Below, in pieces: positions 2 through 51,642 of a stretch of 64,000 bases of DNA. The stretch lies in NCBI GenBank assembly GCA_964523575.1, contig CAZGAV010000011.1:2294-66293 (forward strand), in the 5' to 3' direction. The first letter of the stretch is position 1. Every line of letters starts with the position of its first letter. The stretch is from an uncultured Ignavibacteriales bacterium (GTDB lineage Bacteria > Zixibacteria > MSB-5A5 > GN15 > JAAZOE01). The position numbers and the translations under genes were made by a program. Below the pieces are notes generated by a model. It saw nothing but the letters and a program-made list of their open reading frames with translations, made no database searches and had not been told where the DNA came from.

Positions 2-1942
2 ACCGATATAAGCACAGACATCCAGGTGGTTCAGGGTTCGACTTATCTGTTATCATTCGATTATTCGGAAACCCCCGACAGCCCGGATGCGACCGGGATA
101 CTCCATGGGAATTTCGACGATGATCCAAACCCGGAGGTGTTTATTGCCGGGACCACTTACTGGTACACCTATGCCGCGACATTATATGATTACGCCTCTG
201 AAAGCGGATTCGGGCTGGCCTACTATTATAACAATCTCGATTTCCCGGCCCTTGCTTCACAACTGGGCTATTTTGATGGTGACGAGCTTCTGGATGTGGT
301 GATGACCCGTATTACACCATCTGTCCAATCGGTCGTCTTATCGGGTGATGGCGATAATTCATTTTCCGTTTCCGATTTTGACGATCCCACATCAGCCGCG
401 CCCAAGGGCGGCACTATCGGTGAATTCACCCGCGACGGCTACATAGATTATGCGACCGTCCAGTACAACGGGGTGAATATTTACGCCGGCGGTTCCGATC
501 CGTTATTCGATAAAGTCGGTTTTGTGGGGGTATCGGGTGAGGCCATGTCGGTCAATTCCGCCGATTTTAACGGTGATGGATATGACGATTTGGCCATAGG
601 CACCGACGCGGGAGTCAACATTTACCTCGGCGACAGCGTCGGCGGTTTCAATTTCGCCCACTTTTACAGCCAGCTTTATGGATCGCTGGATATTGTCGTA
701 ACCAATGAAGGGAGTGATTTCGACAACGACGGCAACTATGATCTGTGCATATCGACTCCATCGGTCGGCGGCGCTTACAGCGAAATGGTAGTGTATCTGG
801 GCAACGGCGATGGTTCTTTCGAACAGAATGTGATACTCACCGTCAAGGGTCAGATTTTCGGAAACCGCGTGGGTGATATCAATAATGACGGCGAACTGGA
901 TATCGTCTACGTCAACGGCGCCAAAGAATATGCCGCGATTCTGTTTGGAGACGGCGACGGGTCATTCACCAACGAATTGCGCTATGATATCGCGTTCCGT
1001 AATCCCCGGTATATTGATTGCTTTGACGTCGACCTCGACGGCGACCTCGATATCGCCGTAAACGCCAACCGTTTTTATCCCAGCAATTCTCTTTTCCTGT
1101 TGAAAAACGATCTGGATCCGGGAGAATACTCGCTCAGGTCCTTAGCCGTAACCGGCGTCAATAATGTCGAGCTCGAACTGGTATCGGCCAGCGGGAGGCA
1201 GTTCAATAATTTCCGCAACACTATGCCGACCGGCCAGTATTTCAAACGCAATATCGACCGGAACTCAATCATCGACGAATTCGCGGTCTTGTCGCTGGTG
1301 GAAGAGGGGGCTTATTCGCTGGTGGTTTCCCCGAAGGCCGATTGCCCGATTGGTGAACCATTCACGGTGGAATTCACTCTCGACGGCGAACTCTATCGTC
1401 TGGCCCGGGAGGCGCCGATGAATCAAGACGGATATACTTTCACGGTGTACCCGGCGGCCAACACCGAGGTTGTGCCGAGACCGGGAAAATTCGTGTCCGC
1501 CAATCCGCCGTCGTTTGCCTGGACCGGAACCGGCGATGTCGATTTTCAGCTGGCCTCCGATATCAACTTTAATCAGCTTCTTTGCGATGTGACGGTATCG
1601 GATAACCAATATGCCCCGTCTTCGGCGCTGGAAGTGACGGATACAAGTACGTTTTACTGGCGGATCAAGCCACACGGTCAAGCCTCTTATGATTGCCTGT
1701 ATGCAATCAATCTTGTCGCCACCGAAACGGGCTCGTGCGGCGATGCCAACCAGGATGGAGAGCTTAATGTGGGCGACGCCGTATTTCTCATCAATATGAT
1801 ATTCAAAGGCGGCCCCGCACCGATGCCGGCATGTATCGGAGATGCCTCAAATGACGGACACCTCGACGTGGGGGACGCCGTTTTAATCGTCAATTATATT
1901 TTCCGTGGCGGCCCGCCGCCGGCCGAAGGCTGCTGCCCCTGA
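2..1942 (+). CDS. FG-GAP/VCBS-repeat secreted protein with C-terminal dockerin-like module (5' partial)
   Basis: The frame is open from nt 2 to the GTG at 26 and there is no signal peptide, so the gene is probably truncated by the window edge. Repeated Ca-binding loops are present: NGDGYDDLAIGT, DNDGNYDLCIST, NNDGELDIVYVN, DLDGDLDIAVNA. The last 69 aa are two dockerin-like repeats (GDANQDGELNVGDAVFLINMIF / GDASNDGHLDVGDAVLIVNYIF) ending in CCP. Confidence 0.8.
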   Translation, partial: TDISTDIQVVQGSTYLLSFDYSETPDSPDATGILHGNFDDDPNPEVFIAGTTYWYTYAATLYDYASESGFGLAYYYNNLDFPALASQLGYFDGDELLDVVMTRITPSVQSVVLSGDGDNSFSVSDFDDPTSAAPKGGTIGEFTRDGYIDYATVQYNGVNIYAGGSDPLFDKVGFVGVSGEAMSVNSADFNGDGYDDLAIGTDAGVNIYLGDSVGGFNFAHFYSQLYGSLDIVVTNEGSDFDNDGNYDLCISTPSVGGAYSEMVVYLGNGDGSFEQNVILTVKGQIFGNRVGDINNDGELDIVYVNGAKEYAAILFGDGDGSFTNELRYDIAFRNPRYIDCFDVDLDGDLDIAVNANRFYPSNSLFLLKNDLDPGEYSLRSLAVTGVNNVELELVSASGRQFNNFRNTMPTGQYFKRNIDRNSIIDEFAVLSLVEEGAYSLVVSPKADCPIGEPFTVEFTLDGELYRLAREAPMNQDGYTFTVYPAANTEVVPRPGKFVSANPPSFAWTGTGDVDFQLASDINFNQLLCDVTVSDNQYAPSSALEVTDTSTFYWRIKPHGQASYDCLYAINLVATETGSCGDANQDGELNVGDAVFLINMIFKGGPAPMPACIGDASNDGHLDVGDAVLIVNYIFRGGPPPAEGCCP

Positions 1943-24352: not shown

Positions 24353-24368
24353 AGCAAAGCCCTTGCCA
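24353..24368 (-). promoter_or_regulatory. Sigma-54 (-24/-12) promoter upstream of the HEAT/H+-ATPase/kinase/activator operon
   Basis: The minus strand reads TGGCAAGGGCTTTGCT with correct GG-N10-GC spacing. It lies about 57 nt upstream of the start codon at 24295. Confidence 0.6.
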
Positions 24369-24648
24369 AAGAACACGGAAGTCGTCCGATGGGCCTTATC
24401 GCCATCGAGACAACAGGTTATCCGAATCCGGGAGGTCACAATGACAATTCGCGGCAATCTCGGAATGGGGCATAATGCCACAATGGGTAATGATGCTACA
24501 TCTATTACCCTACTTTCGAAGCCTGCCAGTTTTCAGGAATATGGCCCGCTGACAACTTCGGCTGCGGTAGTCTTTCTCAATATATACGGACTCAAATCGA
24601 GACCCGGCTCGCACGGTCCTGTGCCGGTCACAACGGTTTCGATAGTTC

Positions 24649-24664
24649 CGGCACGAAAATTGCA
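24649..24664 (+). promoter_or_regulatory. Sigma-54 (-24/-12) promoter upstream of the small secreted protein gene
   Basis: The plus strand reads CGGCACGAAAATTGCA. It lies about 37 nt upstream of the ATG at 24702 and is divergent from the promoter at 24353-24368. Confidence 0.65.
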
Positions 24665-24701
24665 TCAGAGAAAAATAAAAATTGTGGAAGGAGCCCACAT
24701 C

Positions 24702-25142
24702 ATGTTAAAGAAAATTGCGATTCTTTTGGGTATGGCGGCCATGATCGCCTGGCCGGGGAGTCATGCCATGGCCCAGCCCAAAACCGAATCCAATGGCGCC
24801 ATGAGCGCTCTAATCGCCTCCACCTCGCCCGATTCTATCCGTAGTCTGGACACGAAAGACGTCATCGACGCTCTGCTGATCGACGGGACCAAAATGGAAG
24901 CTTCTTATGATTCACTGCAGACCAATTTCGAAAGCCTGACAAAAATAAAGGACGATGAGGCTCGCCGGACGGAAACGGCTATTTATAAAACAGAGATGCA
25001 AACCCTGCGGGATAAACTCTCGGAAGAGATGGATGAATTGCGATTCCTGAGATCGATGTCCCAATCGGAAACGGCCGCGTCTGCCGGGGAAGTACGGGCT
25101 CAGCCGGCCAAGGTTACCAAGGGAGACGCCACCGGCCACTGA
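24702..25142 (+). CDS. Small secreted hypothetical protein (146 aa)
   Basis: The internal ATG is preceded by GGAAGGAG and followed by a signal peptide (MLKKIAILLGMAAMIAWPGSHAMAQ). The longer track ORF (from 24363) would run through the sigma-54 promoter. The mature part is helical and charged. Confidence 0.65.
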   Translation: MLKKIAILLGMAAMIAWPGSHAMAQPKTESNGAMSALIASTSPDSIRSLDTKDVIDALLIDGTKMEASYDSLQTNFESLTKIKDDEARRTETAIYKTEMQTLRDKLSEEMDELRFLRSMSQSETAASAGEVRAQPAKVTKGDATGH

Positions 25143-25308: not shown

Positions 25309-27726
25309 TCAGGGACAGCAGAATTCCTGAGGTCCCGGACCGGCTTTGAAAACGTAGCCGATCAGGTACACCGCATCGGCGATATTGGTCTCGCCGTCGT
25401 TGTTGGCGTCGCCGGAGCAGAGCGGATCCGGAGCCGGACCGCTCTTGAAGACATAATTGATCAGGAACACCGCGTCGGCCACATTAACGTCGCCGTCGCC
25501 GTTGGCGTCGCCGCAAACGTAATCGCAGACGTCACCGATACCGTTGCTGTTGGCGTCGGCCTGATCCGGGTTGTAAACATCGGGGCAATTATCGCAACCG
25601 TCCGGGAACCCATCAGCGTCAGTATCGACGTTATCGTCGAATCCCGGACAGATGTCACAACCGTCGGGGACGCCGTCGGCATCGGTATCGACATTATCGT
25701 CGAATCCCGGACAGATATCGCATCCGTCGGGTACGCCGTCGGCGTCGGCATCGACGTTATCGTCGAATCCCGGGCATATGTCGCAGGCGTCGCCGACGCC
25801 GTCGCCGTCGACATCTTCCTGGCCGGGATTGGCGACATCGGGACAATTATCGCAAACGTCGCCGATTCCGTCGAAATCGACATCGTCCTGTCCCGGGTTG
25901 TACAGCGCCGGGCAGTTGTCAACGTCATCGCCGATCCCGTCGCCGTCGGAATCGACAATGATTCCGGTGGGGGCAAAATGGATGAAAATACTGGTGTCGG
26001 GATCGTTATAATGTCGATATTCCCAGATTATCTTGGTGCCGTGATCGGAATAAGCGGAGCTATGCACGTCATTGATGACGACATCGTCGGGGACGGTGTT
26101 GACGATGCTCGGCGCTCCCCAGGTGGCCCCGGCATCCTCGGAGATCGTCTGATATAACGTATCGCCGCGCACAAATGAACAGGCGAAAACGTTGCTCGCG
26201 ACATGCGTCACGCGCGGGTGCCGTTCGCTGTCGGTGGTAGCCACGACCGTCGACTGCAGGAGATTTTCCATGTCGGAGCCGCCGGCGTAGAAGCAGATGA
26301 TATCGACGTCATCGGGAGCTCCATCGGTATAGTATTCCATGACAATGACGATGTTGCCGTTGTTGGCCGCGACATCCGGGTAGCGAATATTTTCGCCGGC
26401 ATTGAGGCTGTAGGTGACAGCCCCGCCGATTACGGCGTCTTCCATATCGGCAAAATTATCGCGCCGTAAAAGAAGGAAGCGCTGAGAGACGCCGGCATCG
26501 TAGGGATCATAAACGGTATAGCCATAGTGAGTCACGTGGTCGATGTCGACCGCCGTCGAAAGACACCCGGTAAAACCGTCGATCCAGGTCAGCGACGCAT
26601 AACCGGTAGAGATGGTGGTATCGTATTGATAGAAAAAGAAGGGGCCGTCAATAATATCCTGATAGCTGAGAACATGGGAAATGAGGCCGAAACGGTATTC
26701 ACCAGGGAAATAGGTGAACTCCTGGGAGCTGTCGCAGGCGATATCGGCCATCTTCATACTGTTGACGCCGTATTGCTCCCAGTTCCAGGTACTGAGGCCG
26801 AAAGTCGCCACGGCCATCGGATTATCAATAGTGATCAACTGGGTATTGGCGCCGCTATTCTGGGAGGCCTTGGGGACGAAGGTCGCGTAAAATTCAGTGC
26901 CCCAGCCCCAAAAATCGGCCGCGGGATAAGAATAATCTCCCGTAAACGAGCCGGCGCTGGGGAAGGACATGCCGTCATCGTCCGAACCGGCCCAGATGAC
27001 AGCCGTATCGTTCGTGTTCGACTCGTAAGCCATAAGCAGGGTACCGTTGCCGGCGTCGGCCAGGATGGGATGAATGAAGGCCGAATCCATGACATAGGTA
27101 ATATCCTCGGCCGTGCAATCGAGGACATAATCGCCGGAGGGATTGCTGGAAAAATCGCCGTCAACGACGATATAATAGGTGGAACCGGCATTCATGACGA
27201 CGCCCGTCAAAATTGACCGCAAACCGCATCCGAATCGGATGGCCGCAACCAGCGTATCGGCGTTGGTGCGGTAGACCCAGAGATTGGTCATGTACGACGA
27301 TTCGCAGAGGCTGATATCGACCAACTGGTTGACCGGCGGCGAATAGGAATAGACGACGTCGGGCGAGTGACCGATATTGCCAACGGACGCCTCCTGGTAA
27401 TCATCGGCGTACCCGACGGTCGTCCCGGAATCCAGGTAAGGCATGGAAGTAATCACGGTAGCGGAGGCAATATCCTCGCCGCCCTGCCGGCTTCCGGAAT
27501 TGAGCAGTTGGGAAGGAGTGAGATCGTTGATGGAGATTGTCTCACCTTCGGCCGTCAGCCGCTGGGGCGCCTGCGATACTTTTTCCGCCTGGGGTCGGTT
27601 CAAAACCAATCCCTTGGGATTATTGGGCGAAAACCCCTCGTTCGAAGGAATCGCCCCGATCGCGCCGGCTATCAAGGCTATCAAAAAGGTGAGAGCCAGT
27701 CCCGCTGTCAGACATTGACGTTTCAT
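25309..27726 (-). CDS. Secreted BNR/Asp-box protein with thrombospondin type-3 repeats and C-terminal dockerin-like module
   Basis: Signal peptide. Asp-box SEDAGATW. A run of D-x-D-x-DG-x-x-D-x-C-D-x-CP repeats (DSDGDGIGDDVDNCP...). The last 69 aa are GDANGDGDVNVADAVFLINYVF / GDANNDGETNIADAVYLIGYVF ending in CCP. Confidence 0.85.
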   Translation of the reverse strand: MKRQCLTAGLALTFLIALIAGAIGAIPSNEGFSPNNPKGLVLNRPQAEKVSQAPQRLTAEGETISINDLTPSQLLNSGSRQGGEDIASATVITSMPYLDSGTTVGYADDYQEASVGNIGHSPDVVYSYSPPVNQLVDISLCESSYMTNLWVYRTNADTLVAAIRFGCGLRSILTGVVMNAGSTYYIVVDGDFSSNPSGDYVLDCTAEDITYVMDSAFIHPILADAGNGTLLMAYESNTNDTAVIWAGSDDDGMSFPSAGSFTGDYSYPAADFWGWGTEFYATFVPKASQNSGANTQLITIDNPMAVATFGLSTWNWEQYGVNSMKMADIACDSSQEFTYFPGEYRFGLISHVLSYQDIIDGPFFFYQYDTTISTGYASLTWIDGFTGCLSTAVDIDHVTHYGYTVYDPYDAGVSQRFLLLRRDNFADMEDAVIGGAVTYSLNAGENIRYPDVAANNGNIVIVMEYYTDGAPDDVDIICFYAGGSDMENLLQSTVVATTDSERHPRVTHVASNVFACSFVRGDTLYQTISEDAGATWGAPSIVNTVPDDVVINDVHSSAYSDHGTKIIWEYRHYNDPDTSIFIHFAPTGIIVDSDGDGIGDDVDNCPALYNPGQDDVDFDGIGDVCDNCPDVANPGQEDVDGDGVGDACDICPGFDDNVDADADGVPDGCDICPGFDDNVDTDADGVPDGCDICPGFDDNVDTDADGFPDGCDNCPDVYNPDQADANSNGIGDVCDYVCGDANGDGDVNVADAVFLINYVFKSGPAPDPLCSGDANNDGETNIADAVYLIGYVFKAGPGPQEFCCP
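25624..25812 (-). repeat. Three tandem 63-bp coding repeats (TSP3-like unit DICPGFDDNVDxDADGxPDGC)
   Basis: Units are 25624-25686, 25687-25749 and 25750-25812. Units 1 and 2 differ at 7 of 63 positions. Unit 3 matches for its first ~27 nt and then diverges. Confidence 0.85.
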
Positions 27727-46519: not shown

Positions 46520-47299
46520 ATGGTCCGGATTCAAAATTTGTCGCGCTCATTCGGTTTGATCAAAGCTGTCGATGATTTATCGTTTGAAGTCAAAGGCGGC
46601 GAAATTTTCGCCCTGCTGGGGCCCAACGGCGCCGGCAAAACCACCACCATTAAAATTATCCTCGGCATGCTCCGGCCCGACAGCGGCACCGTCTGGTTCG
46701 ACGGACATGAGGTTTCACCGCAGGAAAACGGTTACAAGGCTCGCACCGGCTATGTCCCCGAAAACTGCGCCCTTTATGAAACTCTCAGCGGCCGCGAATA
46801 TCTCGAATTCGTCGGCAATCTGCATCATCTGTCGCCCGAATCGGTGCGGCGCAAATCCGACCGCCTTCTCGAACTCCTCGAAATCGGCGACGCCTCGACC
46901 AAACTGATCCGCGAATATTCCAAAGGGATGAAACAGAAAATACTGATTATTTCGGCTCTCCTTCATGACCCCGATTTGATTATTCTCGACGAGCCTTTCT
47001 CCGGTCTCGACGCCAACGCCGTTTCGGTTTTCCGCGAGGTTTTCCGCGAGCAGGCCCGTCAGGGCAAAAGTATCATTTTCTGTTCGCACATCCTCGAGGT
47101 CGTCGAACGGCTGGTCAGCCGCATCCTTATCATCAAAGACGGCAAAAACCTGGCCTCCGGTTCCCCGGACGAAATCATCCGCCAAACCGGCCATACCAGC
47201 CTCGACCGCGCCTTCAATGACCTCACCGGCGCCCGGGATATTGATACTCGCGCCCGGGATATTGTCGATGCCATCGGGCGGGACGATGGCGATGACTAA
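46520..47299 (+). CDS. ABC transporter ATP-binding protein
   Basis: Start chosen at MVRIQNLSRSFG. Walker A GPNGAGKTT, signature-like YSKGMKQK, Walker B LIILDEPFSGLD. Confidence 0.9.
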   Translation: MVRIQNLSRSFGLIKAVDDLSFEVKGGEIFALLGPNGAGKTTTIKIILGMLRPDSGTVWFDGHEVSPQENGYKARTGYVPENCALYETLSGREYLEFVGNLHHLSPESVRRKSDRLLELLEIGDASTKLIREYSKGMKQKILIISALLHDPDLIILDEPFSGLDANAVSVFREVFREQARQGKSIIFCSHILEVVERLVSRILIIKDGKNLASGSPDEIIRQTGHTSLDRAFNDLTGARDIDTRARDIVDAIGRDDGDD

Positions 47300-48929
47300 A
47301 GCCCGGCAGATAATCGACTGGCATCAGGTCCGGGCCATGATCGGCGTCAGCCTCAAAAACGACTGGCGCGGCGCCAACAACCCCTTCACCGGGTCGTCGG
47401 TCCGCAAAGGCAAAATTCCCGGAATCGTCATAATCCTGATCATGAATCTGGTCATGTCGATTTTTCTCGGCGTGGCTTTTCTTCTGGTGGCCGATCTGTT
47501 CACCGGTATGGTCATCGCCGCCGTTGGCGCCCTGACCGTGGTTGCCGTTCAGGTCTTGTTGGAATTCGGTAACGTCATCATCTCGCCGGACGATTATAAT
47601 ATCCTCAGCCCTCATCCGATCAATTCTCGAACCTTTTATACCGCCAAACTTATCCACCTGCTCTTTTATGTCACCCTGTTGGCGGCTTCGGTGTCGGTCG
47701 CCCCGGCGATTTTCGCGGCTGTAGCCGCAAAGTCGATATGGGCCGCGCCGGTGGTTCTGATCCATTTCTGGATAACCTGCGTTTTTGCCGCCGTCCTCGT
47801 CATGAATCTCTATACCCTGATTATCAAAAAAATCGACCGGCGGCGGCTGGAACGACTGCTCGGTTATATCCATATGCTGATGATGATCGGCTTTTATCTC
47901 GGGCTGAATATTCTCTCGCGCGTCATGAAACAGGCCCTGGTGGGACTCGATGTCAGCCGCCTGCCGTGGCTGAAGGCCCTGCCGTCTTACTGGTTCGGGG
48001 CCTGGGTCAAGCTCGCCGTCAGCGGCTGGGATGGGGAGACTTTTTTGCTGGGACTGCTGGGACTGGCCCTGCTGGCCGGCCTGGCGGCCATGGCCTTCTC
48101 CTATCTGTCATTGACCTACGCCGAATCATTGAGCCATGTGGCCTGGTCGCGATCCTCCGATATCCGCCGGGAAACACCCCGGCTGTTAAAAATCGTGGGG
48201 AAGCGAATCATGGGCTTCGAGGAACGCGCCCTGTTGATGCTGGTGCGGGCCAACTTCAAGCATGACACTCAATTTCGGATGGGCGTCCTGGGATTCTTGC
48301 CATTGATAATATTCTACATGATTTATGGCTTTATCGTGGCCGGCTCCAATGTCCGTGATCCCCTGAATCCGTTGCCGGATACTCAGGCCATGACCAATGT
48401 TTTACTTGGTCTCGCCGTCGTCATTATGCCGGCCATGATGCTGTCGCTGATGCATACCTCCAAATCATGGTCGGCGGCCTGGATATTTTATACGGCGCCG
48501 TTTGACCGGGTGAAAATGATCCGGGCCATCGATCGCCTGGTATTGATGATGCTGGTCGTGCCGATCTGCATCCTCATGTGCGCCATCTTCATCTACCTTT
48601 ACGGCAATGTCCTCCACGCTCTCCTTCACACTGCTTTCATGATGACCGTGGCCGCGACCGGATTGACTTTTTTGAACATCTTCGATATTCGCCTGCCGTT
48701 TGCGGCCGATAGTCGGCCGGGGGGGACGATGGGTGGAATGCTGGGTCCGATGATCCTGGCGGCGGCCATATTTGGCACCATTATCGCGATCGTCGCCAAC
48801 GTCGGCTATGGGGGATACCTGGGCTGGGGAATTTATATGGCCGCTTTTCTGATTTTCAATTTCCTTCTCAGCCGGGGCCGGGTCGGTCGTATCCGCAAAG
48901 TCTCCGCCACCTGGGAATTCACCGGCTGA
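47286..48929 (+). CDS. Polytopic membrane protein, probable permease partner of the ABC ATPase
   Basis: The ATG overlaps the ATPase gene by 14 nt. About 12 hydrophobic helices. No family motif recognised. Confidence 0.7.
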   Translation: MAMTKARQIIDWHQVRAMIGVSLKNDWRGANNPFTGSSVRKGKIPGIVIILIMNLVMSIFLGVAFLLVADLFTGMVIAAVGALTVVAVQVLLEFGNVIISPDDYNILSPHPINSRTFYTAKLIHLLFYVTLLAASVSVAPAIFAAVAAKSIWAAPVVLIHFWITCVFAAVLVMNLYTLIIKKIDRRRLERLLGYIHMLMMIGFYLGLNILSRVMKQALVGLDVSRLPWLKALPSYWFGAWVKLAVSGWDGETFLLGLLGLALLAGLAAMAFSYLSLTYAESLSHVAWSRSSDIRRETPRLLKIVGKRIMGFEERALLMLVRANFKHDTQFRMGVLGFLPLIIFYMIYGFIVAGSNVRDPLNPLPDTQAMTNVLLGLAVVIMPAMMLSLMHTSKSWSAAWIFYTAPFDRVKMIRAIDRLVLMMLVVPICILMCAIFIYLYGNVLHALLHTAFMMTVAATGLTFLNIFDIRLPFAADSRPGGTMGGMLGPMILAAAIFGTIIAIVANVGYGGYLGWGIYMAAFLIFNFLLSRGRVGRIRKVSATWEFTG

Positions 48930-49272: not shown

Positions 49273-51642
49273 ATGACATCTATCCGAATTTTGATCATTC
49301 TCAGTCTTTTCGGGACGGCCATCGCCCTGGCCGAACCGGCGGTCAGGATCGAACACCCCGTCGTGATTTCACCCCAGGGCAATGTCAACGTCGATATTTC
49401 TCTGGACAATCCCGACAGCCTCGCCTTCGGCGGCTTTGACCTTTATATATCGTATGACTCGGCCCTGTCCCTCCAGTCGGTTTCAATGGGGCAACTTCTG
49501 ATCGATTGCGGCTGGGAGTACTTCACCTATCGCGGTGAGGGGCTCAATGAAATACGCATCGTGGCCATGGCTGAAATCAGCAACGGCGCCGCCCACCCCT
49601 CATGCTACGCCCAAACTTCGGGGACGCTGGCCCGCATCGCGTTTGTCCCCCAATGCAACCCCCTTCACGACGCCGATTTTCTTTCGATTCGTTTTATGTG
49701 GTACGACTGCGGCGACAATACCTTTTCCTCGATTGCCGGCGACACCCTGATTATTTCCCATGACGTTTACGCCTTCAATGGTCTCGACGATTTTCTCATC
49801 ACCGGGGACACCGCTTTCCCGACCCCCTACGGCGCACCCGGTCAATGCCTGCCCAATTTCCGGGGAATAGATTTCTACGGCGGCGGCATTGCGGCCATAT
49901 TCCATGATACGATACCTCCCCTCGCCCATTGTCCCGGCAATATCATAGCGGAAAACGACCCCGGCCAATGCGGCGCGAGTGTAGCTTATACCGCCTCGGT
50001 TTCGGACAACAATCCCGGAGCGACCATTACCTGCGATATACCATCCGGTTCGTTTTTCCCCGATGGTTCGACCACTGTCACCTGCATTGCCGTCGATATT
50101 CTCGATAACGCCGACACCTGTGATTTTCAGGTTAACGTCCATGATACCGAAGCGCCATCGGCCGTCTGCCCCGGGGATATGACCGTCGCCGCCGATCCCG
50201 GAACCTGCGGAGCGATTGTGCCGTTTGCGGCGGAGGTGACCGACAACTGCCCCGGCCCCACCATTTCATATTCCCCCGGACCTTCGAGTTTCTTCGAAAT
50301 CGGACCTAACCCGGTAATTTGCGTCGCTACAGACGCCGCCGGCAATGCCGATACCTGTAGCTTCACCGTCACTGTCATCGATTCCGAGCCGCCCACAATT
50401 AATTTTCCGCAAGACGTCGTCGTTCCCAACGATCCCGGCCAATGTGACGCCGAGGTCGCCTACGAGGTTACGGCCGAAGACAATTGTTCGACGGCCAATG
50501 TTTCCTGTGATCATCCTTTCGATTCCTATTTCAATCTCGGGACGACCTCCATTACCTGCATTGCCGTCGATGAAGCAGGCAATGCCGATACCGGAGTTTT
50601 TCACATAACCGTCATTGACACCCAGCCTCCGGTGGCCTCCTGCCCCGACGACACCACTCTGTACAATGAACCCGGTTTGTGCGGCGCTCATCTGGTCTTT
50701 ACTCCCACCGTTGAAGATAATTGTCCCGGCGCGACGATTTCCTGCTATCCGCCGTCGGGAGCGCTGTTTCCGACTCGGCCCCTGCCGGTCGTTTGTGTCG
50801 CCGTTGACGCCGGAGGCAATACCGATACGGTCGGCTTCACGGTCACCGTCGTCGATACTCAGCCGCCGATTGTCAATGTCCCGACCGAAGTTATTAAACC
50901 CAACGATCCCGGCCAATGCGGCACGGTTGTCGAGTTCGAAGTGAGCGTCATGGACAATTGCGCCAACGCCGTGATTTCCTGCGACCACGCTTCAGGCTCC
51001 TACTTCCCGGTGGGATTCACCGAGGTTACTTGCATCGGAAGCGACGGCTGGAACAACGCCGATACGGCGATCTTTACGGTTATCGTCTCCGACACCATCC
51101 GGCCGACTTTGTTCTGCCCCAACGATATCGAGGTCCAGAACGATTCCGGCGCCTATGGAGCCATCGTGAATTACACGCCCACCGCCGAAGACAATTGCCC
51201 CGATGTAACCATTTACACCTCGCCTCCGTCGGGCTCATTTTTCGATATTGGCACTAGAACAGTACAGGTTATCGCCACCGATAATGTCGGCAACGCCACG
51301 GTTGGCCATTTCGATGTGACCGTTACCCTCAACGATCCCGATCAGGACGGCTTCGCCACCTGGGATGATAATTGTCCCGAAACGTTTAACCCCGATCAAC
51401 TCGACTCCGACGGCGACGGTCTCGGCGATGTCTGCGACTGGCGCTACGGTGATGCCAATAATGACGATGACATCAATGTCGGTGACGCCGTTTACCTGAT
51501 CGCTTATGTCTTCAGCTATGGTCCTGGGCCGGAACCGGATCAGGCCGGCGACGCCAATTGCGACGGTCAGGCCAATGTTGCCGACGCTGTTTATTTGATT
51601 AATTACATTTTTCGCCAGGGTTCGGAACCCGGATGCCGCTGA
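49273..51642 (+). CDS. Secreted surface protein: cohesin-like domain + 6 HYR repeats + TSP3 repeat + dockerin-like module
   Basis: Start chosen at MTSIRILIILSLFGTAIALA (signal peptide). The N-domain is ...NVNVDISLDNPDSLAFGGFDLYISYDSALSLQSV.... Six ~79-aa units follow the pattern DTxPP..CP.D......G.CGA.V.......DNCPG......P.SGS.FP.G.T.V.C.A.D..GN.D.C.F.V.V. The tail is GDANNDDDINVGDAVYLIAYVF / GDANCDGQANVADAVYLINYIF. Confidence 0.85.
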   Translation: MTSIRILIILSLFGTAIALAEPAVRIEHPVVISPQGNVNVDISLDNPDSLAFGGFDLYISYDSALSLQSVSMGQLLIDCGWEYFTYRGEGLNEIRIVAMAEISNGAAHPSCYAQTSGTLARIAFVPQCNPLHDADFLSIRFMWYDCGDNTFSSIAGDTLIISHDVYAFNGLDDFLITGDTAFPTPYGAPGQCLPNFRGIDFYGGGIAAIFHDTIPPLAHCPGNIIAENDPGQCGASVAYTASVSDNNPGATITCDIPSGSFFPDGSTTVTCIAVDILDNADTCDFQVNVHDTEAPSAVCPGDMTVAADPGTCGAIVPFAAEVTDNCPGPTISYSPGPSSFFEIGPNPVICVATDAAGNADTCSFTVTVIDSEPPTINFPQDVVVPNDPGQCDAEVAYEVTAEDNCSTANVSCDHPFDSYFNLGTTSITCIAVDEAGNADTGVFHITVIDTQPPVASCPDDTTLYNEPGLCGAHLVFTPTVEDNCPGATISCYPPSGALFPTRPLPVVCVAVDAGGNTDTVGFTVTVVDTQPPIVNVPTEVIKPNDPGQCGTVVEFEVSVMDNCANAVISCDHASGSYFPVGFTEVTCIGSDGWNNADTAIFTVIVSDTIRPTLFCPNDIEVQNDSGAYGAIVNYTPTAEDNCPDVTIYTSPPSGSFFDIGTRTVQVIATDNVGNATVGHFDVTVTLNDPDQDGFATWDDNCPETFNPDQLDSDGDGLGDVCDWRYGDANNDDDINVGDAVYLIAYVFSYGPGPEPDQAGDANCDGQANVADAVYLINYIFRQGSEPGCR
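49906..51330 (+). repeat. Six tandem HYR-type coding repeats (~237 bp each, diverged)
   Basis: The repeat boundaries DTIPP, DTEAP, DSEPP, DTQPP, DTQPP and DTIRP recur every ~79 codons. Confidence 0.8.

Follow-up and report, generated by a model that had tools for sequence, protein, structure and literature searches.

Locus and Shared C-terminal Module

The window analyzed in this work is a stretch of 64,000 nucleotides from an uncultured Ignavibacteriales bacterium that GTDB places in the phylum Zixibacteria (GenBank assembly GCA_964523575.1, contig CAZGAV010000011.1, forward-strand positions 2,294 to 66,293), and our subject is a short C-terminal module shared by three unrelated secreted proteins encoded within it (viz. 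P0004, P0005, and P0006; Table 1). Translation shows that these proteins end in collinear twin-repeat tails of 66–69 amino acids (aa), each of which is the extreme C-terminus of its protein and is directly followed by a TGA stop codon. The tail of P0004 reads VCGDANGDG...QEFCCP on the minus strand, and the plus-strand translation of the same positions is meaningless. The P0005 tail (SCGDANQDG...AEGCCP) resembles it in its length of 69 aa, in the matching positions of its four Cys residues and in the terminus CCP, and the P0006 tail (RYGDANNDD...SEPGCR) is a 66-aa variant with two Cys. The pairwise identities between the tails are 42/69, 39/69, and 35/69, a likeness far above chance, and the three tails match Pfam Dockerin_1 with E-values of 6.8e-9, 3.3e-3, and 4.5e-8. 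These translations agree with a preliminary description of the window, made from the sequence alone, which had reported two tails of 69 aa ending in CCP and one of 66 aa ending in GCR.

The proteins that carry the tails differ in architecture. P0004 consists of a Sec-type signal peptide, an N-terminal domain of about 590 aa, TSP3 repeats (TSP_3, 44.4 bits) and the module. P0005 is an FG-GAP repeat protein whose open frame on the genome contig is 982 aa long, and P0006 is composed of a signal peptide, a cohesin-fold domain, six HYR stretches, a TSP3-like linker and the module. Of the domains named in the preliminary description, TSP_3 (P0004), FG-GAP (P0005), and HYR (P0006) were recovered; the BNR domain found no Pfam match, Asp-box-like motifs being visible in the N-terminal domain of P0004, which itself matches no Pfam family.

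Table 1. Positions in the window of the three tailed genes and of the features discussed.
Feature	Position	Strand	Evidence
P0005, FG-GAP repeat protein, cut at 5' end of window	2..1942	plus	FG-GAP_3 75.9 bits
P0005 dockerin module	1733..1942	plus	translation; Dockerin_1 18.0 bits; 'C1 + C2a + CC' class
P0004, whole gene, 805 aa	25309..27726	minus	open reading frame list, translation, Pfam
P0004 dockerin module, residues 737-805 of 805 aa, and TGA	25309..25518	minus	translation
P0004 terminal C803-C804-P805	25312-25320	minus	
P0004 C770, Cys before loop 2	25417-25419	minus	
P0004 C738, Cys at -1 of loop 1	25513-25515	minus	
63-bp tandem array, 3.5 copies, 83% matches	25592..25810	minus	Tandem Repeats Finder
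P0006, 799 aa	49243..51642	plus	Pfam, AlphaFold2, Foldseek
P0006 cohesin-fold domain, residues 29-225	49327..49917	plus	AlphaFold2, Foldseek
P0006 dockerin module	51442..51642	plus	translation; Dockerin_1 33.6 bits; cysteine class (Table 2)

Dockerin Identity and Predicted Fold

Against the Pfam family Dockerin_1 (PF00404; gathering score 22.9 bits) the P0004 tail scores 36.2 bits (residues 739–792), the P0006 tail 33.6 bits and the P0005 tail 18.0 bits, the last alone falling under the gathering cut-off. The P0005 tail scores 134.8 bits against a hidden Markov model (HMM) of the three tails, of which it is itself one seed. A profile made from 86 tails of the genome matches the type I dockerin of CelS (2mte) in the PDB at 4.6e-9. 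The AlphaFold2 (AF2) model of the P0004 tail, obtained for a 72-aa construct with the 86-tail alignment, has a predicted local distance difference test score (pLDDT) of 94.2 and a predicted template modeling score (pTM) of 0.83; its helices (residues 16–28, 36–39, and 49–60) make up the three-helix fold of dockerins, and its Pro-rich end is also confidently predicted (pLDDT 91 for residues 61–70). In a Foldseek search with this model, ranks 1–33 are occupied by cellulosomal dockerins, mostly of type I (e.g., 4fl4_G, template modeling (TM) scores 0.76/0.81, root-mean-square deviation 1.8 Å). Because of the CelS profile match, the AF2 model and the Foldseek ranks, the tail is regarded as a real dockerin and not as a look-alike. 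The twin calcium-loop modules that had been described as "dockerin type-I-like" are therefore confirmed as such, and the qualifier can be dropped: judged by sequence profiles and predicted structure, the tails are bona fide type-I-fold dockerins.

The calcium-loop columns are conserved in both repeats of the 116 full-length C-terminal modules of this genome (repeat 1/repeat 2: D1 114/105, N3 110/109, D5 108/109, and D12 116/116), and an F-K-x-G-P-x-P motif is conserved behind each helix. The consensus sequences of the two repeats agree at 26 of 28 positions, including those equivalent to the cohesin-contact positions of clostridial dockerins, which are Val-Gly/Ala and Ile-Asn in both halves of the module. 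Since the repeats are near-identical even at these positions, the module most likely docks onto cohesins, possibly in either orientation.

Copy Number and Distribution

The genome that contains the window (3.83 Mb in 155 contigs, 98.75% complete) holds 127 Dockerin_1 matches at E ≤ 1e-3, nearly all of them above the cut-off. An HMM built from just the three tails of the window matches 134 open reading frames (ORFs), 116 of which carry a full-length module whose end lies no more than 21 residues from the stop codon. A signal-peptide-like N-terminus is present in 92 of these 116, and 13 more are truncated by contig ends. One docking tag is in this way found on roughly 3–4% of the genes of the genome.

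Matches are found in 118 of the 121 genomes and 77 of the 80 genera of the phylum, most of the genomes having at least 49, and ten related metagenome-assembled genomes (MAGs) hold 91–150+ copies each. Of at least 558 relatives in 185,579 species genomes, the best 80 were examined; many of these 80 are named Candidatus Zixiibacteriota, and the others are MAGs labeled as Fibrobacteres-Chlorobi-Bacteroidetes (FCB) group, uncultured Ignavibacteria(les) or unclassified. Among 1.84 billion representative proteins there are 57,167 matches at E ≤ 1e-3 and 18,901 at E ≤ 1e-10. The tail is hence a member of a Zixibacteria-wide, hugely expanded dockerin subfamily. The suggestion that the tag is specific to its lineage holds at the level of the whole phylum, within which the comparison was made, and the tails did not prove to be ordinary Dockerin_1 modules devoid of lineage-specific conservation. 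A literature search found no paper on dockerins in Zixibacteria.

Cargo of the Dockerin Proteins

The cargo was surveyed in 60 random dockerin proteins with a signal-peptide-like start and a length of ≤1,200 aa, all from outside the contig of the window. Peptidases are represented by S8 (five matches), M28 (four), M1 (three), M4 (two), and M14, C1, C10, and M6 (one each), and PAD_porph and a beta-lactamase-fold protein were found once each. FG-GAP and He_PIG were matched five times each, TSP_3 three times, and LVIVD and beta-helix twice each. The 25 most frequent of the 51 matched families comprise peptidases and FG-GAP, TSP3, immunoglobulin-like and beta-helix domains, and no glycoside hydrolase (GH) is among these 25. 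The earlier observation that the cargo domains are not glycoside hydrolases, made on the three proteins of the window, is thus borne out by the census: the system is non-cellulosomal and is weighted to proteolysis and adhesion.

Cysteine Classes and Predicted Disulfide Staples

Alignment of the 116 modules separates their Cys residues into discrete classes (Table 2). The P0004 tail belongs to the two-staple class 'C1 + C2a + CC', and the P0006 tail, with a loop-2 Cys (DANCDG) and a terminal GC, to a one-staple class. The terminus CCP, by which the preliminary description had named the tails, is only one of several Cys classes (26 of the 116 tails end in CCP).

Table 2. Cysteine classes among the 116 full-length C-terminal modules of the genome.
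Class	Modules
Loop-2 position 4 Cys (DANCDG) and one tail Cys (P0006 type)	26
Cys at -1 of loop 1, Cys two residues before loop 2, and tail CC (P0004/P0005 type)	22
Cys at -1, loop-2 position 4 Cys, and tail CC	17
Cys at -1 and one tail Cys	16
No Cys	6
Loop-2 position 6 Cys and tail GCV[ED]	5
Longer 'knotted' forms, 4-6 core Cys and 2 Cys just upstream	about 12

The number of Cys is even in 106 of the 116 modules, and in 98 of them the count of upstream partner Cys equals that of tail Cys. A module with Cys at one of the two alternative loop-2 sites lacks it at the other (Fisher, 9e-6), and Cys at -1 is associated with the presence of two or more tail Cys (Fisher, 6e-6). How far the tail Cys lies from the GPxP motif varies with its partner: the offset is +1/+2 when the partner is at loop-2 position 4, and +4 when it is at either of the remaining two sites. 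The Cys positions recur in homologs from other MAGs, where matching classes are found together with a CxxC-terminal class and the count is even in 63 of 75 modules. In the best 150 global matches 331 modules have even and 143 odd counts, a bias that is noisy because the module boundaries are fuzzy in tandem arrays. The 720-aa public protein P0007 is a tandem of nine modules, in every one of which inspection shows a single Cys at -1 and a single tail Cys; apart from Cys2, next to the start Met, no further Cys is visible by eye. Because the classes are discrete, the counts are even and the partner and tail counts agree, the pattern suggests that each module carries one or two disulfide staples. 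On the sequence evidence, the simplest reading is that of two independent intramodule disulfides, each of which would tie the tail to an upstream site.

The aligned CelS dockerins have Tyr at -1, in agreement with the claim that Cys at this position is not a feature of clostridial dockerins. We likewise know of no clostridial dockerin that has the remaining Cys or a CC or GC terminus. By analogy, the first staple would correspond in its position (-1) to the "intramolecular clasp" of dockerins, of which it is predicted to be a covalent version: crystal structures and mutagenesis of dockerins reveal contacts between C-terminal residues and those at -1 to -3 ahead of the conserved Gly, contacts which stabilize the calcium-bound dockerin fold (Slutzki et al., 2013; PMC3821032). 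No paper on natural disulfide-stapled bacterial dockerins was found in our literature search.

Other arrangements of the module were noted. Three public proteins (viz. P0007, P0011, and P0021) have 4–9+ tandem modules with the Cys staple pattern, the inverse of a multi-cohesin scaffoldin, and the terminal sequence of P0021 resembles the C-terminal domain (CTD) of the type IX secretion system (T9SS). At three loci of related MAGs (L010, L021, and L028) such a dockerin is internal and is followed by a further domain. In L021 and L028 this domain resembles the Fibrobacter "major paralogous domain" (...TDIDGN.Y.TV.IG.Q.WM.ENL...), and in L010 it is a different extension of about 240 aa.

Candidate Cohesin Partners on T9SS-tagged Proteins

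Pfam Cohesin matches 14 places in the genome, four of them above the cut-off, and the carriers hold one to three cohesins each. These ORFs begin with signal peptides, and seven end in a sequence of the form ...NPFNP...SGIYFYRL...KKM.LLK, which Pfam identifies as Por_Secre_tail (cut-off 27 bits) with scores of 36.3 and 32 bits. An 866-aa protein and a minimal protein of 277 aa, encoded on contig C20 and made up of a signal peptide, a cohesin and a CTD, serve as examples. An HMM of the cohesin-ORF tails identifies 56 ORFs with a C-terminal CTD in the genome; four of the 56 also hold a dockerin, which is always internal, and the set is otherwise separate from the 116 ORFs with a C-terminal dockerin. 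The T9SS translocon protein SprA is present, and PorV-like barrels are represented by weak matches. The cohesin carriers that end in a T9SS CTD would be delivered to the cell surface and held there.

A cohesin candidate is also encoded in the window itself. Residues 29–225 of P0006, for which no Pfam match was found, are predicted by AF2 as a cohesin-fold domain (pLDDT 77, pTM 0.80), and the 50 best Foldseek matches of this model in the PDB are all cohesins (e.g., 4ums, E = 1.2e-9; 1g1k, TM 0.83). The domain belongs to a cohesin subfamily of about 190 aa, marked by the motif CGWEYFTYR, of which there are 11 domains in 10 ORFs including P0006; five of the nine other ORFs end in a T9SS CTD. On the basis of the predicted structure, the N-terminal domain of P0006 is a candidate partner module for the dockerins. 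Because it combines a cohesin-fold N-terminus with a dockerin, P0006 may be viewed as a cohesin-HYR-dockerin adaptor that is both socket and plug.

Outside the window, three cohesin-bearing proteins (contigs C5:60574-63258, C25:6437-9151, and C66:4293-6962), T9SS-CTD carriers among them, have a second dockerin-like module that is free of Cys and lies internally, just behind the WEYFTYR cohesin domain. It reads ...RGDINANG.PNEIADAVM.TNYFI.G...SDVNNDGI.LSVADLVYL.R.I.GD and may have a distinct specificity or act as a self-capping element.

The preliminary description had also suggested that the module could be a cell-surface anchoring or sorting tag. Surface anchoring is the best-supported part of this suggestion; because the tail is a true dockerin and the genome encodes candidate cohesin partners, it is not a novel signal for sorting by the T9SS, a sortase or an exosortase. 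Three known categories were rejected in the course of this work. The tail is not a T9SS CTD (PF18962/TIGR04183), as the tailed proteins of the window have no Por_Secre_tail match and the two tags are almost mutually exclusive. It is not a GC-type dockerin (NCBIfam NF041540), for which the best score in the genome is 19.5 bits and that of the P0004 tail 16 bits, against a cut-off of 29. Lastly, the system is not a cellulosome, since GH-dominated cargo is not seen and the carriers hold so few cohesins.

Proposed Mechanism and Alternative Explanations

Taken together, these results make it probable that the tail is a calcium-binding dockerin with Cys staples that clips Sec-exported cargo onto cohesins displayed by the T9SS. 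In this mechanism, Sec would export about 116 proteins with the C-terminal module, mainly peptidases (viz. S8, M28, M1, M4, M14, C1, C10, and M6) and also FG-GAP, TSP3, and HYR adhesin-like proteins. The module would fold around two calcium ions and be stapled by one or two disulfides. The Cys at -1 before the first calcium loop would pair with a C-terminal Cys and, independently of this pair, a second C-terminal Cys would be joined to a Cys that lies in the second loop or ahead of it, so that CCP tails would have both staples and a GCR tail the second staple alone. The stapled module would then dock, either directly or through adaptors with both a cohesin and a dockerin such as P0006, on the cohesins of about 14 proteins, at least seven of which have a T9SS CTD.

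Several observations weigh against this mechanism. Cohesin and dockerin genes do not cluster above chance: a dockerin lies no farther than 3 kb from 4 of the 14 cohesins, where 3.4 would be expected at random. The geometry by which adjacent tail Cys would reach the N-terminus and loop 2 is not obvious. The dockerin modules have a very strong tendency to even Cys counts, yet neither a DsbB nor a VKOR family match was detected in the genome (98.75% complete), and among the cargo parts even counts (47) are not favored over odd ones (41), a sample too small to exclude a moderate bias; neither result points to a way in which the staples would be oxidized. A tree of the masked modules (73 columns) has almost no supported branches, which leaves phylogenetically independent contrasts without power. 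Lastly, the dockerin-tagged proteins have a Sec signal only and no evident outer-membrane route. None of the three secretins of the genome reaches the GspD cut-off, and its two PilB/GspE-like ATPases and seven prepilin-like ORFs are scattered; no secretin lies beside an ATPase or pseudopilin gene, except that one prepilin-like ORF is found 3.3 kb from the secretin of contig C33. Secretins and pseudopilin-like genes are thus present, yet they are not assignable to a type II secretion system (T2SS).

In one alternative, the dockerin would serve chiefly as a trans-acting export ticket. Dockerin proteins, folded after Sec export, would bind a cohesin-CTD substrate in the periplasm and pass SprA together with it, so that one signal on about 10 carriers would serve more than 100 passengers, with surface display as a side effect; the staples would protect the fold of the plug in transit in a host that lacks the usual DsbB/VKOR machinery. 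Such a role would fit the presence of Sec signals without CTDs on the dockerin proteins (both tags occurring together in only four ORFs), the location of the cohesins on CTD proteins, the presence of SprA and the lack of any GspD that reaches its family cut-off. Several of the cargo classes, viz. C10, M14, PAD_porph, and S8, are moreover direct T9SS cargo in Porphyromonas. We nevertheless consider co-transport unlikely: we know of no case of hitch-hiking through the T9SS, a T2SS route is still conceivable given the secretins, ATPases and prepilin-like ORFs named above, and the stoichiometry of about 116 cargo proteins to about 7–9 CTD-bearing cohesin carriers is awkward.

A second alternative concerns the Cys residues, which could bind Zn or Fe in a four-Cys metal site or could work as a reversible redox switch, docking being permitted only outside the reducing cell or in oxidizing micro-niches. 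The failure to detect DsbB and VKOR, the absence of an even-Cys bias in the cargo, the terminal CxxC variant of the relatives and the probable life of the host in anoxic sediment, as suggested by the isolate names of its relatives, are all consistent with this view. It is likewise unlikely, as 64 of the 116 modules have just two Cys or none, each of the two Cys pairs comes and goes independently of the other, two neighboring Cys make poor metal ligands and every module of the tandem protein P0007 contains a single pair. The redox-switch version is in any case compatible with disulfides.

Least probable of all is that the module binds a target other than cohesin (e.g., lipopolysaccharide, capsular polysaccharide, an outer-membrane protein or other dockerins) and that the cohesin-fold proteins serve otherwise, a view favored by the excess of about 116 dockerins over about 14 cohesin proteins, by the lack of gene clustering and by the replacement of the clostridial Ser-Thr and Lys-Arg contacts by Val-Gly/Ala and Ile-Asn, but opposed by the facts that every characterized dockerin of this fold binds cohesin, that the Foldseek matches are nearly all cohesin complexes, that both module types occur in this genome and even within single proteins (P0006 and the 890-aa protein of contig C66), and that cohesins and dockerins co-occur in described FCB systems.

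If cohesin docking on T9SS-displayed carriers is correct, Zixibacteria would assemble the greater part of their extracellular proteins for proteolysis and adhesion into a plug-and-socket system on T9SS-delivered anchors, a protein-degrading counterpart of the cellulosome with relevance to the turnover of organic matter in sediments. Builders of designer cellulosomes already attempt to engineer dockerin stability, and a covalent dockerin clasp would be a natural design for such stabilization. The paired Cys without detectable DsbB or VKOR and the cargo without an evident outer-membrane route represent concrete and testable puzzles.

Other Features of the Window

Directly upstream of the dockerin of P0004, and within its TSP3 repeats, is the 63-bp tandem array listed in Table 1, which suggests a recent in-frame expansion of the predicted calcium-binding linker. 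The neighboring genes in the window are unrelated housekeeping genes (viz. P-type ATPase, HEAT repeats, transglutaminase-like, MoeA, AcrB, Kup, and SulP), and two plus-strand ORFs, at 24363-25142 (259 aa) and 47217-48929 (570 aa), match no Pfam family at E ≤ 1e-5.

The NCBIfam family NF045500 (Omp28-related selenoprotein) scores 77 bits with residues 699–792 of P0004 and 43 bits with residues 674–790 of P0006, against a cut-off of 200; this curated selenoprotein family likewise ends in a TSP3-dockerin arrangement. Selenocysteine read-through at the TGA of the tail, which in tails with a single Cys ahead of the TGA would yield C-U-P, was considered and rejected, as the codons downstream of the tails of the genome give it no support.

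Comparison with Known Systems

The closest structural counterparts of the module are the clostridial type I dockerins (PF00404; Acetivibrio thermocellus CelS 2MTE/1DAQ, 4FL4, and 1OHZ/2CCL), which it resembles in its two 12-residue D-x-N-x-D...D calcium loops, the helix behind each loop, the short linker helix, the near-perfect duplication, the C-terminal place on secreted proteins and the fold (TM 0.7–0.8). It differs from them in its peptidase and adhesin-like cargo, in its host, a member of the FCB group with T9SS genes that is presumably diderm, in the F-K-x-G-P-x-P motif, in the contact residues (V-G/A and I-N instead of S-T and K-R), in its one to three Cys pairs and in the Pro-rich tail of 8–12 residues that ends in C, CC or GC. 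Contact of position -1 with the C-terminus would be shared with the intramolecular clasp, such as that between W(-1) and P75 in the ScaA dockerin of Ruminococcus flavefaciens (Slutzki et al., 2013; PMC3821032), and in the Zixibacteria module the Cys at -1 covaries with a terminal Cys that usually has a Pro directly after it. The known clasps are, however, non-covalent (aromatic-Pro stacking, salt bridges or hydrophobic contacts), whereas that of the Zixibacteria would be a disulfide, and nothing comparable to the putative second staple, to loop 2, has been described.

Two other C-terminal tags invite comparison. The GC-type dockerin (NF041540) is a dockerin-derived C-terminal anchoring domain, presumably named after its Gly-Cys motif, to which the GC-x tail class is superficially similar without being a member. 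The T9SS CTD (PF18962/TIGR04183) is likewise a C-terminal tag on many unrelated secreted proteins, with overlapping kinds of cargo, but unlike the dockerin tail it has a beta-sandwich fold, is recognized by the secretion machinery and is usually cleaved.

Expansions of dockerins and cohesins outside the cellulosome, with a proposed function in surface attachment, have been described for anaerobic methanotrophic (ANME) archaea (Chadwick et al., 2022; PMC9012536). These and other non-cellulosomal systems of archaea and other bacteria (Peer et al., 2009) are similar in that many dockerin and cohesin proteins are present in non-cellulolytic anaerobes of sediments, and they differ in lineage and cell envelope, in anchoring by an S-layer rather than by the T9SS, and in that no Cys staples have been described. 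More similar is the system of the Cloacimonadota Ca. Stygibacter, in which GH18, GH57, S8, and C25 enzymes are tagged with dockerins and a cohesin scaffoldin bears a T9SS CTD (Williams et al., 2021; PMC8542988). Both hosts belong to the FCB group, and in both, signal-peptide-bearing enzymes have C-terminal dockerins and a cohesin carrier is anchored by a T9SS CTD. Ca. Stygibacter has a single giant multi-cohesin scaffoldin with carbohydrate-binding modules (CBMs) and a handful of dockerin proteins, for which Cys features are not reported, whereas in the present genome dockerins are found on about 116 proteins and cohesins on about 14, mostly one or two per carrier, CBMs and GHs are not emphasized, and the modules are predicted to be Cys-stapled. 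Hence, non-cellulosomal display by cohesins and dockerins is known from other organisms, and what is new in the Zixibacteria is the predicted Cys-stapled variant of the dockerin.

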